Of a DNA stretch of 50,546 nt, positions 20,620-23,431 are shown piece after piece (the first letter of the stretch is position 1; each line of letters opens with the position of its first letter). Source of the DNA: Eubacteriales bacterium (GTDB taxonomy: Bacteria > Bacillota > Clostridia > Oscillospirales > CAG-272); contig JAZQUX010000190.1 of NCBI GenBank assembly GCA_045631585.1, positions 1-50,546 on the forward strand, in the 5' to 3' direction. Below the pieces are notes generated by a model. The model saw only the letters and a list, made by a program, of their open reading frames with translations. It made no database searches and was not told the origin of the DNA. A program made the translations under genes and the position numbers.

Positions 20620-21087
20620 TTAAGCTCTTTCAAGCTTTCTCATACAGTCTTTCAAAACTTCTCTCTCTTCGGGACTTGCATTCTCCATCATCTTGCCGAG
20701 CTTCGACATCATGTGGTCTTTTGCCCCCTCGCGAGAATAGTTATGACTTCCCATAGAGCCTTCATCGTAAGAATTGTAAGAGCCTCTGCCGTAAGAATCT
20801 CCTTCTTCGGAGTATCCGTCCTCACGGGAGTATCTGCCCCTGCTATCACGTTTCGCACGACGTCTGCCCCTTGCATAAGACATTTCATCATCGTAGCTTG
20901 CATAGCTTCCGTAACTGTCGTTGGACGAGCCGCCCTCCTCTTCAAGCATCTCAATCTTGCCGAGATTCTTGATTGTGTCGGTCAGTTTCCAAACGAGTTC
21001 AAGTTCAACGCCTGCAAGCTTGCCCTTGTTCGCATACTGTTCAAGCTCCTTGCAAAGCATCTCTTTTAATTTTTCAATATACTCCAT
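20620..21087 (-). CDS. Accessory protein F (155 aa): helical N-domain plus S/Y/G/R/D-rich low-complexity region
   Basis: ATG at 21087 with GGAGGTG RBS. MEYIEKLKEMLCKELEQY... then ...SYGSYASYDDEMSYARGRRRAKRDSRGRYSREDGYSEEGDSYGRGSY... Confidence 0.65.
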   Translation of the reverse strand: MEYIEKLKEMLCKELEQYANKGKLAGVELELVWKLTDTIKNLGKIEMLEEEGGSSNDSYGSYASYDDEMSYARGRRRAKRDSRGRYSREDGYSEEGDSYGRGSYNSYDEGSMGSHNYSREGAKDHMMSKLGKMMENASPEEREVLKDCMRKLERA

Positions 21088-21099
21088 ATGCACACCTCC

Positions 21100-21531
21100 T
21101 CACGCCACACGGTCAAAGACAATGTTAGCATTTTCGACATCGATTGCTGTTCCGTCACTTGTGTTTCTGATTGCTACACTTACGCAGCATCCACAGGGAA
21201 TGGTCACAAATGTAGTAAACGATACATTAAAGAAGTCACCAATCGCTGCCGGAGTAACCACACCCACAGCATTCCCAACTATTTCACCATCTTCGGAAAG
21301 TGATACAGAGATTTCGCCAACGGTGCCGCCAACCGCAACGGCTATATTCGCATCAAATGTAACACGGTATATAGTCTTGCAAGTGTTGTTTGCACCCTTG
21401 AGGCGGAACACACCCGAGCCGTCACGATGAGTGATACATCCCTTTGTGCAAGCTCTCGAGCCGTCAAGGAACGTCACATTGCCATCTTCGGCAACGGTCT
21501 GTACCGCAATGTTACTGTATTCAGCAGGCAT
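21100..21531 (-). CDS. Accessory protein E (143 aa): BclA C-terminal / C1q-TNF-like jelly-roll candidate
   Basis: AGGGAGA RBS. All-beta pattern ...VTFLDGSRAC..GCITHRDGSGVFRL...YRVTFDANIAVAVGGTVGEISVSL..DGEIV...ANIVFDRVA, ending like the BclA C-terminal domain (...IIIEKVA) as I recall it. Confidence 0.6.
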   Translation of the reverse strand: MPAEYSNIAVQTVAEDGNVTFLDGSRACTKGCITHRDGSGVFRLKGANNTCKTIYRVTFDANIAVAVGGTVGEISVSLSEDGEIVGNAVGVVTPAAIGDFFNVSFTTFVTIPCGCCVSVAIRNTSDGTAIDVENANIVFDRVA

Positions 21532-21549
21532 TGTTATCGTCTCCCTTCG

Positions 21550-22314
21550 TTAGAATGAGCCGCAACCACAGCCGTTACCAAATGTTACATTAGCATTGTA
21601 GCAACAATTGGGATTAGGCACTACATAAGCGGGTGTCGGTGTAGGGTTGAGTCTGCGAATAAGTTCTGCGGTCTGCGCTTCCTGATTTGCGGTGATGAAA
21701 GCATTCTGCTGTGCCTGCGAAGCCGCAAACTTAAGATTCTGATTCTCCGCAGTAAGTGTTGCAATCTTGTCATTTGTAAGGAAATCAAGGATTGCTCTGC
21801 TGTTGGCGTTTGCATTGTCGATTATGTCTCTTGTGCTGTTCTGAATTGTGTTTCTCGTCTCGCAAGCCTGTGTTGCAAGATTGTAATTTACGCCGTCAAT
21901 CGCTCTCTGTGTTGCACAGCAACAATCGGAAAGCTGATGCGAAATGTCGCAGAAGCCTCTCTCAACACCGTTAAAGCCCTGAAGTACAGTTGTGTTAAGA
22001 CCGTTAAAGCCCTGACACATAGTCTGCTGGATGCCCGCCTGACCAAGCTTGAGGTCATTAAGGCTTGAGAGTACAGCGGAGTTGTTAAAGCCTGCCGCAA
22101 GGTCAGCCTGTGTCGCACAAGACGAGCCACAGCCACCACCGAAGCCGCCACCAAAACCACCGAAGCCTCTGCCACCAAAGCCGAAGCCACCATAACCGAA
22201 GAGCAGAAGAATTACTATCCACGCCCAATCGTTGCCAAACATACCATTGTTGTCGTTGTTTCTCGTTACAGCCGCAACATCTGCAGCCGTAAGAGTTCCA
22301 CCTGATTCATACAT
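21550..22314 (-). CDS. Accessory protein D (254 aa): Gly-rich TM segment, Cys-rich helical ectodomain, C-terminal CC/CGCG tail
   Basis: TAGGAGGA RBS. ...NDWAWIVILLLFGYGGFGFGGRGFGGFGGGFGGGCG..., repeated QGFNG units, CCC, coiled-coil ...ATLTAENQNLKFAASQAQQN..., and end ...NPNCCYNANVTFGNGCGCGSF. Confidence 0.7.
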   Translation of the reverse strand: MYESGGTLTAADVAAVTRNNDNNGMFGNDWAWIVILLLFGYGGFGFGGRGFGGFGGGFGGGCGSSCATQADLAAGFNNSAVLSSLNDLKLGQAGIQQTMCQGFNGLNTTVLQGFNGVERGFCDISHQLSDCCCATQRAIDGVNYNLATQACETRNTIQNSTRDIIDNANANSRAILDFLTNDKIATLTAENQNLKFAASQAQQNAFITANQEAQTAELIRRLNPTPTPAYVVPNPNCCYNANVTFGNGCGCGSF

Positions 22315-22376
22315 TTTTGTTTTCCTCCTATTTTGTTTATATATACTTAAATCGTGTGCACCCGATTAAAGTCCCT

Positions 22377-22583
22377 TTAGTTTCCGAAAAACGGAATTAT
22401 CTGCTGTGCCATTTGAGAAAGCTGATTAAATTGCTCCTGCGACATCTGTCCCGTCTGAAGAAGCCGTTCTACCTCTGCTCTCGGATTTCCCTGAAAATTA
22501 TTTCTGAACTGTTTTGCTTGCTCAACGAAATTCGCCATAGGGTTGCTCTGATTTCCCATAGAGTTAAAAAGTCTGTTAGCCAT
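22377..22583 (-). CDS. Accessory protein C (68 aa)
   Basis: ATG at 22583 with GGAGG RBS. Overlaps the upstream stop by 8 nt. Q/N-rich. Confidence 0.6.
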   Translation of the reverse strand: MANRLFNSMGNQSNPMANFVEQAKQFRNNFQGNPRAEVERLLQTGQMSQEQFNQLSQMAQQIIPFFGN

Positions 22584-23049
22584 TTTCAATATCCTCCTTC
22601 TTTGCTTTGGGCTTTAACTGTAACGCCATTGCTTCTACCTTTGCTCTTAACACATCTATCTGCTCCACAAGGGCATTATATGTTTCCATCGGCACATACT
22701 TCCCCTCGCACTTGCAAACGTGTTCGGAAGGCTTCTTATCGCCCTCTGTGCCACGCTCAACATAGTCAAGTATTCTCATCGAAGGAACACCCTGACCGTC
22801 AACAGATTTTATGTAAACGGTGTCCTTGTTCTTGTCCCACAATGTCACACTATTATTCGGTGCAACGGGGTAGGAGATTGCTTCCGTCTCATTTAATGTC
22901 CAAAGCAAACCGCTTGAATATTGAGGCATCTGCTGAACAGGCTGTTGCATCATAGGCTGATATTGTCCCTTGTACTGATTCAGCACATCCGGCATAGCCC
23001 CATTCGGTGCATAATAATTCTGATAAGGATTAATGTTGTTCTGCCACAT
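22576..23049 (-). CDS. Accessory protein B (157 aa): Q/P/Y-rich N-terminus, beta-rich core, C-terminal coiled coil
   Basis: ATG at 23049. MWQNNINPYQNYYAPNG...QQPVQQMPQ..., GLLWTLNETEAISYPVAPNNSVTLWDKNKDTVYIKSVDGQGVPSMRILDYVER, ...VEQIDVLRAKVEAMALQL... Confidence 0.65.
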   Translation of the reverse strand: MWQNNINPYQNYYAPNGAMPDVLNQYKGQYQPMMQQPVQQMPQYSSGLLWTLNETEAISYPVAPNNSVTLWDKNKDTVYIKSVDGQGVPSMRILDYVERGTEGDKKPSEHVCKCEGKYVPMETYNALVEQIDVLRAKVEAMALQLKPKAKKEDIENG

Positions 23050-23431
23050 TGTCTGTCATACCTTTCTTATAAAAATATAGCGGAGCTTCATTACCGCTGT
23101 TCCACGCATCGTAATAGTCACCATCTACAACAGCCACCGCATGGCTTCCCGTTCCGACTACAAAAGTCCCCTTCGGATATTCCCGACAGAAATCCTCAAT
23201 GGTGTAGCATTCGGGACAATCATTTGCGACCATATCCCTTTCAAACCCGTTGCCTTTGAGATAAGCACCCCAAACGGAATTGCTTGAAAGCACATCACCC
23301 ATCAAATACCCTTGCAAAGATAGGTCAAGATAGGTCTGTTCCCAACTCTGCCCGATAGCCTTTGACACAGCCCTTATCACACAGTCGCCCGTCCTCTTTC
23401 CGTGCGGATTCGGATTGTATTCTTTGTACAT
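23030..23431 (-). CDS. Accessory protein A (133 aa): papain-like (NlpC/P60 or C39-like) Cys-His fold candidate
   Basis: ATG at 23431 with AGAGGTG RBS (the track start at 23497 is TTG). GKRTGDCVIRAVSKA (candidate catalytic Cys) and GTGSHAVAVVDGDYYDAWN (candidate His/Asp). Confidence 0.6.
   Translation of the reverse strand: MYKEYNPNPHGKRTGDCVIRAVSKAIGQSWEQTYLDLSLQGYLMGDVLSSNSVWGAYLKGNGFERDMVANDCPECYTIEDFCREYPKGTFVVGTGSHAVAVVDGDYYDAWNSGNEAPLYFYKKGMTDNVAEQH

Follow-up and report, generated by a model that had tools for sequence, protein, structure and literature searches.

A six-gene cassette in a phage contig from an Eubacteriales bacterium is one copy of a widespread and portable phage module

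The six minus-strand genes A to F at positions 20620-23431 of contig JAZQUX010000190.1 (assembly GCA_045631585.1, Eubacteriales bacterium) are one copy of a widespread, portable phage module. The window analyzed here is the whole contig of 50,546 nucleotides (nt), which is a phage genome. A sequence-only reading of this DNA had described the genes as an accessory cassette beside attP and proposed that they remodel the host surface, possibly that of the spore, with an unusual set of virion appendages as the alternative. It had also suggested examining whether the six genes co-occur elsewhere and whether they are always linked to prophages. When this was done, the genes were found together far beyond the window phage, and the context was phage-like every time among the loci examined. 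The comparison set comprised 72 loci carrying a relative of gene D (L numbers below), drawn from annotated phages, from metagenome contigs and from genomes sampled at one per species, and their neighboring open reading frames (ORFs) were clustered into families (f numbers).

The order (A)-B-C-D-E-F recurs among these loci, persisting in dozens of unrelated gut-phage backbones, and 27 of the 72 have the complete set as A-(HTH)-B-C-D-E-F, where HTH is a small helix-turn-helix gene. Counted by family, with the window's own copy included in some of the counts, B accompanies D at 66 of the 72 loci, F at 50, E at 45, A at 39 and C at 34. Other genes can fill the places of C, E and F: the Q/M-rich family f6 stands in for C at 27 loci, f7 for E at 22 and f10 for F at 15. 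A second form of the module reads HTH-B-f6-D-f7-f10, with A sometimes downstream, and mixed forms occur too. Distant homology between the alternatives was considered and rejected, since hhalign gave the pairs E/f7, C/f6 and F/f10 probabilities of no more than 1.5%; f6, f7 and f10 are here treated as non-homologous replacements, judging by their sequences. These swaps, with B and D kept constant, are consistent with a complex of several parts assembled on D. An HTH gene of family f8 or f12 lies within 4 kb of D at 33 of the 72 loci, either directly upstream of the module or inside it, sometimes between A and B. One f12 member exceeds the Pfam cut-off for Sigma70_r4, and f8 members show sub-threshold GerE/HTH (LuxR, Sigma70_r4) matches.

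The surroundings of the module vary from phage to phage. In many carriers, L004 and L005 among them, it follows genes for a holin, an M23 or other endolysin and XhlA-like proteins and precedes the integrase gene, and in Butyrivibrio phage Ceridwen, isolated on Butyrivibrio fibrisolvens DSM 3071, the full module comes after the lysis genes. In Dulem virus 35 it lies between the genes for a minor capsid protein (Pfam Phage_min_cap2) and the major capsid protein, and about eight further loci have it in a similar head-gene position (about nine in total). Clostridium perfringens phage XP41-N3, which has no annotated integrase, carries B-f6-D-f7 between an antirepressor gene and Gam/Erf. Most carrier genomes are Clostridia. 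Module contigs were also binned into metagenome-assembled genomes outside the Firmicutes, namely Prevotella (L022), Bacteroidaceae (L058), Akkermansia (L062) and Gastranaerophilaceae (L045), which could be true hosts or the result of wrongly binned phage contigs.

Gene D was also found without its partners, in crAss-like phages, in a Bacteroides uniformis phage beside RecT, and in viruses assigned to Methanomassiliicoccales. The D-family ORFs located in crAss-like phages, Bacteroides phage C3_41T2LP and Methanomassiliicoccales-assigned viruses are L073 4632-5528, L074 4653-5570 and L075 4878-5759. Relatives of E, F, B and C sought near D in the crAss-like, Bacteroides and archaeal viruses gave D alone and one weak f10 match. 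In the crAss-like and Bacteroides phages a series of small genes (∼136-180, 170, 75 and 132 amino acids, aa) follows D, with no detectable relationship to E or F. Database records label the D relatives 'spike protein/glycoprotein' in crAss-like phages and 'outer capsid protein/viral fiber' in Bacteroides phage C3_41T2LP.

In the window, the six genes are translationally coupled ORFs, as read from the ORF listing and the sequence. Gene A (23030-23431, ATG start, 133 aa, PHROG 3754) overlaps B (22576-23049, 157 aa, PHROG 21718) by 20 nt, and B overlaps C (22377-22583, 68 aa, PHROG 22984) by 8 nt. Gaps of 62, 18 and 12 nt separate C from D (21550-22314, 254 aa, PHROG 16490), D from E (21100-21531, 143 aa, PHROG 20016) and E from F (20620-21087, 155 aa, PHROG 28802), the last with an alternative GTG start two codons further upstream. 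A GGAGG- or GAGG-type Shine-Dalgarno sequence precedes every ATG. These features confirm the tight coupling and strong ribosome-binding sites described earlier, and the two flanking terminators were also recovered, a few bases away from their first placement. The upstream boundary is a minus-strand hairpin of 15 pairs with a loop of 4, followed by TTTTTTGCGCT (23544..23577), at which the transcript of the giant gene would end; a second minus-strand hairpin of 14 pairs with a loop of 4 and a GGTTTTATAT tail (20580..20611) closes the cassette. Terminator-like sites numbered 14 in the 7-kb region, against 5.8 expected.

A -10-like TAGAAT preceded by TG (23464..23469, minus strand) is placed 32 nt upstream of the start of A. 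It has no recognizable -35 and is a candidate promoter of the cassette; a consensus promoter scan called no promoter, at this element included. The layout of hairpin, T-run, TG-TAnAAT, 25-40 nt and ATG also precedes A in L005, L013, L016, L020 and L024, and this junction occurred in 6 of 18 regions upstream of A, against 0.6 expected from shuffles. Because a hairpin and T-run followed by TG-TAnAAT stand before A in several phages, the cassette looks like a transcription unit of its own, in agreement with the autonomy originally proposed for it. At the same five junctions (in L013 near 8960 and in L016 near 8693), the terminator of the HTH gene and its T-run lead directly into TG-TA(T/C)AAT, and ATAGGCAGAA lies between this element and the ribosome-binding site of A. 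Leaders of a similar kind stand before B where the module has its second form. A loose regular expression for the promoter and leader motif across loci was dropped as too unspecific, and no result rests on the crude cross-locus terminator scan, which was noisy. Counting k-mers for a repeated 'late motif' in the window gave nothing informative, and neither did the search there for a second copy of the sequence upstream of the cassette.

None of the six proteins had a match above noise in Pfam, NCBIfam or PADLOC, all six PHROG families are listed as 'unknown function', and four of the six proteins lack a Pfam family even among their relatives. Profiles of the A, E, D and B families gave nothing significant against the sequences of the PDB. 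A search of the literature by PHROG and DUF numbers, phage-encoded BclA/exosporium proteins and the proteomics of C. perfringens carrier phages found no description of the module and no proteomic study of a carrier phage.

D is the core of the module, and its family forms at least 8000 clusters when grouped at 90% identity and 1632 when grouped at 50%. The best 150 relatives are all stand-alone proteins of 79-340 aa, and a D-E or other fusion that could serve as a Rosetta-stone link was looked for among them and rejected. No Pfam family was assigned to D or to the relatives scanned. The sequence begins with an acidic tail of ∼31 aa, the hydrophobic WAWIVILLLF and a Gly/Phe-rich run, and the hydrophobic core is conserved (mean Kyte-Doolittle value of 2.7 across 11 residues). 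The middle is a long stretch without predicted beta content that contains QGFNG-type repeats, and we read it as a helical stalk. An invariant CCC motif and a AQNAFITANQEAQTAELIRRL segment, nearly invariant from Clostridia phages to crAss-like phages, are further hallmarks, and the protein ends in a Pro-rich PxPAYVVPNP stretch and a Cys/Gly tail terminating in CGCG. With 12 Cys in the window protein, the description of D as Gly-rich and Cys-rich with a membrane-type segment holds; the charge bias mildly favors an N-out/C-in orientation, which leaves the proposed ectodomain in doubt. An aromatic residue occurs among the last three residues of D at 25 of 37 loci with E, compared with 2 of 22 with f7 (Fisher p = 1e-5, relatedness of the loci ignored). 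Because the aromatic C-terminus covaries with the choice of E or f7, the data hint at a contact between the tail of D and the protein encoded in the fourth slot.

The AlphaFold2 (AF2) model of E shows a ten-strand jelly roll of the tumor necrosis factor (TNF) type, with a predicted local distance difference test score (pLDDT) of 83.8 and a predicted template modeling score (pTM) of 0.77. The top Foldseek matches in the PDB were 9h38, 8d02, 7r1m and 1wck, all with probability 1.0 and representing the C-terminal domain of F-BclA, BxpB/ExsFA and BclA, followed by TNF ligands (E down to 3e-7). While the window E itself had no match to Pfam BclA_C (PF18573) at E ≤ 1, 9 of 141 scanned members of the B, A, E and f7 families did (best 5e-7), and one of these that was checked individually was an E-family member scoring 18.3 bits against a cut-off of 38. 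The family has 1171 relatives. On the strength of the model, E is a predicted BclA/ExsFA-like TNF-fold jelly roll, and the structural matches and the BclA_C matches among relatives uphold the earlier suggestion of a BclA-C/C1q-like domain. E shares the jelly roll of the BclA C-terminal domain and ExsFA/BxpB (Foldseek E 3e-7 to 5e-5, TM 0.6-0.76), and like ExsFA/BxpB it stands alone at ∼145 aa. It differs from these exosporium proteins of the Bacillus cereus group in its low identity (13-17%), in the lack of a collagen-like stalk or exosporium-targeting N-terminus, and in being encoded by phages, including phages of non-sporulating hosts.

D and E jointly also recall the TNF-superfamily ligands, type II membrane proteins with a stalk and a trimeric head, in that D would supply the N-terminal anchor and the stalk and E the head with its TNF fold. 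Here, however, the parts are split over two genes whose association we infer from synteny and covariation, and the likeness is limited to the fold. The alternative to E, f7 (L002 6673-7050 and 21 other loci), is a protein of 125-150 aa with an N-terminal CxxxCxxC and many more Cys, and had no Pfam match.

Gene A, with 3698 relatives, appears to encode a papain-like Cys-His-Asp protein of minimal size that is not close to any known family. D16, C17, R20, H97 and D108 are invariant, and C17, H97 and D108 are so in both a 31-sequence and an 80-sequence set, as would be expected of a catalytic triad. In the AF2 model (pLDDT 91.5) a helix spans residues 17-26 and strands run from 89 to 123, consistent with an alpha+beta papain fold carrying the conserved Cys, His and Asp. 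Foldseek returned weak papain-like matches (Josephin-2 best, E = 0.086, also Tae4 and UfSP2), and no significant match to a solved structure, a PDB sequence, or a Pfam or NCBIfam family was obtained. As in the papain-like peptidases and isopeptidases (Josephin, UfSP2, Tae4-type amidases), the first long helix bears the invariant Cys, and the beta region toward the C-terminus holds the invariant His and Asp, but with 125-133 aa the family is far smaller than most members of that group. The papain-like assignment made from the sequence is thus supported by the invariant residues and the modeled fold.

The remaining proteins combine conserved segments with biased composition. In B, a Q/P/Y-rich N-terminus is followed by a conserved central domain and, at the C-terminus, a segment resembling a coiled coil, and C was correctly described as a Q/N-rich protein of 68 aa (18% Q, 15% N). 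The S/Y/G/R-rich low-complexity region noted in F is present, but it is a central R/S/Y/G-rich core between conserved, helical-looking N- and C-terminal segments and not a tail; it contains the conserved motif RRDS(M/R)GRYS. The slot-5 alternative f10 carries a DUF7841 domain, and its members (e.g., L054 11167-11859) have an R/D/Y/G-rich N-terminal half, sometimes with RRDS(M/R)GRYS, like F. Inspection of the N-termini of all six proteins revealed no signal-peptide-like segment, which leaves export to the cell surface unexplained for the five proteins other than D.

We tentatively favor, with more reserve than confidence, a membrane-anchored D-E fiber complex whose site of action would be the membrane of the cell, infected or lysogenic. 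The module would consist of the small HTH regulator and A to F, with B-C-D-E-F as its core. The hydrophobic, Gly/Phe-rich segment near the N-terminus would insert D into the cytoplasmic membrane, and D would form an oligomeric helical stalk; a membrane anchor is suggested because no anchor other than the bilayer is shared by hosts and virion types as different as these. D would display its highly conserved segment and its Pro/Cys-rich tail, on which E, presumably a trimer, may dock as a head, much as ExsFA binds the N-terminal peptide of exosporium fibers. The Q/Y-rich B, the Q/N-rich C and the R/S/Y/G-rich F, with their conserved flanking segments, may serve as adaptors or chaperones, and A may trim or cross-link one of the components. 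Since no signal-peptide-like N-termini were seen, the partners would encounter D within the cell. The most likely job would be the exclusion of other phages or another form of envelope conditioning, which is the weakest step of the scheme. A spore function or a standard virion part appears less likely than a job at the membrane.

Superinfection-exclusion proteins such as Sie2009 of lactococcal phages, Ltp of a Streptococcus thermophilus phage and Imm and Sp of T4 are phage-encoded and membrane-anchored and act at the cytoplasmic membrane. Their genes often lie near integrase or lysis genes, and they are portable, as a bilayer suffices for them. The systems known to us are single small proteins, whereas the module is multi-gene and shows neither sequence similarity to them nor a PADLOC match. 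Several observations weigh against a membrane complex devoted to exclusion. Six or seven genes far exceed the needs of known superinfection-exclusion systems, and no known defense or exclusion domain was detected, PADLOC giving no meaningful match for any of the six proteins. The hydrophobic core of D is short, its acidic N-tail suggests an N-out/C-in orientation, and the covariation test of its tail ignores kinship among the loci. TNF-fold and coiled-coil proteins are typical of virion fibers, and the module stands among head genes in about nine loci. In many phages it directly follows lysis genes and XhlA-like membrane proteins, and a role in release retains some probability.

The main rival is an accessory virion appendage, which we consider doubtful. 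D would be a fiber shaft anchored in the particle by its hydrophobic N-terminus and E or f7 the distal TNF-fold knob, with B, C and F as assembly chaperones or additional fiber parts, A as a maturation protease, and Cys cross-linking after release. Viral fibers commonly carry the TNF/C1q fold at their tips, and the closest viral structures to E were uncharacterized proteins of 130-145 aa from sipho-, myo- and podoviruses. The position between minor capsid and scaffold or major capsid genes in about nine loci, the orientation of the cassette, which is that of the late genes in the window, and the 'spike protein' or 'viral fiber' labels of D relatives in crAss-like and Bacteroides phage records point the same way. 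However, the strongly hydrophobic membrane-type segment would be odd for a soluble fiber protein, and a single attachment device would need to suit unrelated podo-, sipho- and myovirus particles. Moreover, a strong terminator insulates the cassette from the late operon, many phages provide the module with its own regulator, and the setting in XP41-N3 and the Bacteroides phage is among early-type genes.

A probable lysis cluster occupies 36564-38339 of the minus strand in the window. It comprises genes for an M23 peptidase (37704-38339), two small hydrophobic proteins (37454-37780 and 37203-37457), an XhlA-like coiled-coil protein (36983-37219) and a CxxC protein (36793-36969), both anchored in the membrane by a C-terminal segment, and, at its end, a 68-aa HTH protein (36564-36770; sigma-70 region 4/GerE-like, family f8) that is linked to the cassette by synteny only. 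In many other phages the trio f18/f16, f9 and f8/f12 precedes the module. A 500-aa ORF and a 3777-aa ORF separate the f8 gene from A here, while the two are adjacent or nearly so in other phages.

An accessory role in lysis or egress, with D disrupting membranes in the manner of a spanin or fusion protein, by a hydrophobic Gly-rich peptide and a coiled coil, and working with the neighboring holin, endolysin and XhlA-like proteins and the other genes regulating or assisting, appears to us distinctly unlikely. In its favor, the module directly follows holin, endolysin and tail-anchored XhlA-like/CxxC membrane protein genes in most Firmicutes loci, in the crAss-like phage cr116_1 three annotated genes and a distance of ∼1.1 kb separate D from the lysis genes upstream of it, and in Dulem virus 35, where the module stands in the head region, XhlA-like genes of families f16 and f9 come with it. 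The spanin-type layout of anchor and helical region is present in the sequence of D, which shares with spanins (lambda Rz/Rz1) and class I fusion proteins (influenza HA2) a hydrophobic Gly-rich N-terminus, a long, apparently helical region, conserved Cys and, in many phages, a place next to lysis genes. The D profile also gave repeated weak matches to influenza HA2 in which the Gly-rich stretch of D aligned with the N-terminal region of HA2. These matches are nevertheless non-significant (E about 0.14 or higher), and D has no C-terminal anchor. No lipoprotein partner is apparent, inspection having revealed no lipoprotein-type N-terminus among the six window proteins, and neither the monoderm hosts, which are the majority (most being Clostridia), nor the archaeal ones offer an outer membrane for fusion. 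In addition, the cassette is transcriptionally apart from the lysis genes, which are 13 kb away in the window, and neither the Bacteroides phage nor the archaeal virus has lysis genes beside D.

The view that the cassette is a lysogenic-conversion module remodeling the host surface, possibly the spore coat or exosporium, with an ExsFA/BclA-like E, Cys-/Gly-/Tyr-rich matrix proteins, a cross-linking A and a GerE-like regulator, seems highly improbable to us, although it accounts for several observations. The best structural matches of E are the exosporium proteins F-BclA, BxpB/ExsFA and BclA, the small HTH gene has sub-threshold GerE/LuxR matches, and most carrier genomes are Clostridia. No signal peptides are apparent on inspection in any of the six proteins; spore-coat proteins made in the mother cell lack them as well. 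The cassette also resembles phage morons in being bounded by terminators with a -10-like element of its own, in its place in the window between late genes and attP, and in its variable position among backbones. It differs from them in its number of genes (six or seven that co-evolve, against one or two), in being conserved over more than 60 phage backbones, and in occurring also inside head-gene clusters and in a phage without an annotated integrase.

The classic moron interpretation of the sequence-only reading is not supported, as XP41-N3 has the module among early-type genes and about nine loci have it inside the head-gene cluster. Because a C. perfringens phage without an annotated integrase carries it, pure lysogenic conversion is argued against, and the module is not confined to phages recognizable as temperate. 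The spore-surface interpretation fared no better. The full module is found in Ceridwen, isolated on a species of Butyrivibrio, a genus not known to sporulate, and a spore-specific role is unlikely because D relatives occur in crAss-like, Bacteroides and putative archaeal viruses (those assigned to Methanomassiliicoccales). No sporulation-type promoter was evident upstream of A, where promoters were judged by eye only. Among the 141 + 56 + 46 family members scanned, A and B members had no GerQ or transglutaminase Pfam match (E ≤ 0.05), and F and D members had no match to a spore-coat family (E ≤ 0.01). BclA_C and DUF7841 were the only Pfam entries found in more than two members across the A, B, E, f7, F, f10 and D families. 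The candidate assignments of B as GerQ-like, A as a Tgl-like transglutaminase and F as CotG-like had no support in these member-by-member scans, and that of the HTH protein as GerE was set aside, its matches to GerE or Sigma70_r4 being sub-threshold only. The probability not taken up by the membrane complex and these three alternatives belongs to functions beyond them.

The rest of the window is laid out as follows. Positions 1-218 repeat directly at 50329-50546 with 96% identity (209/218), and the contig probably represents an entire phage genome (∼50.3 kb), circular or terminally redundant, that was put together from a mixed population. The minus-strand genes run from the large terminase, portal, major head protein, internal virion protein and a tail-fiber-like protein to the M23 peptidase, small membrane proteins, the 68-aa HTH protein, the 500-aa and 3777-aa ORFs and the cassette. 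The 500-aa ORF (34937-36439, minus strand) had no match, and the 3777-aa ORF (23588-34921, minus strand) had a sub-threshold Pfam match to ART-PolyVal alone. Downstream of the cassette lies the integrase ORF (19292-20353, plus strand), directly followed by what resembles the 3' end of a tmRNA or tRNA, with T-arm, acceptor stem and CCA (∼20374-20421, plus strand; Rfam tmRNA match with E = 6.6e-5, far under the gathering score). TTTAAA-containing repeats are found between this element and the cassette terminator. The tmRNA/tRNA-like 3' end is likely the attP core, which would imply integration into ssrA or a tRNA gene, and together with the integrase it makes the proposed location of the cassette beside attP plausible. 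Past attP and the integrase follow a repressor-like gene and early genes (exonuclease, RecT, primase/helicase, methyltransferases).

The module does not qualify as a member of any of the systems that we considered. Most of its plausible functions fall within known kinds of phage accessory systems. A more far-reaching view, unlikely in our estimation, is that of a split 'TNF-ligand-like' spike serving gut viruses as a host-independent membrane device. D would provide the anchor and a fusion-protein-like stalk and E or f7 the head, set in a low-complexity, Cys-rich B/F matrix, while the module's own papain-like enzyme would mature the spike and its own small HTH factor would switch it on. The core would then be common to phages of Firmicutes and Bacteroidetes and to viruses of methanogenic archaea, and might act as a universal egress or entry-blocking structure or as a membrane-bound assembly platform.

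Our results indicate that the TNF fold of the exosporium type (BclA/ExsFA) is widely used by gut phages outside the context of sporulation. Cultivable carriers exist in the C. perfringens phages XP41-N3 and CPD1 and in Butyrivibrio phage Ceridwen, which makes direct testing feasible. Since the module is so common, so strongly conserved and portable across temperate and apparently virulent phages, its job is probably one that the standard map of phage biology does not yet show.

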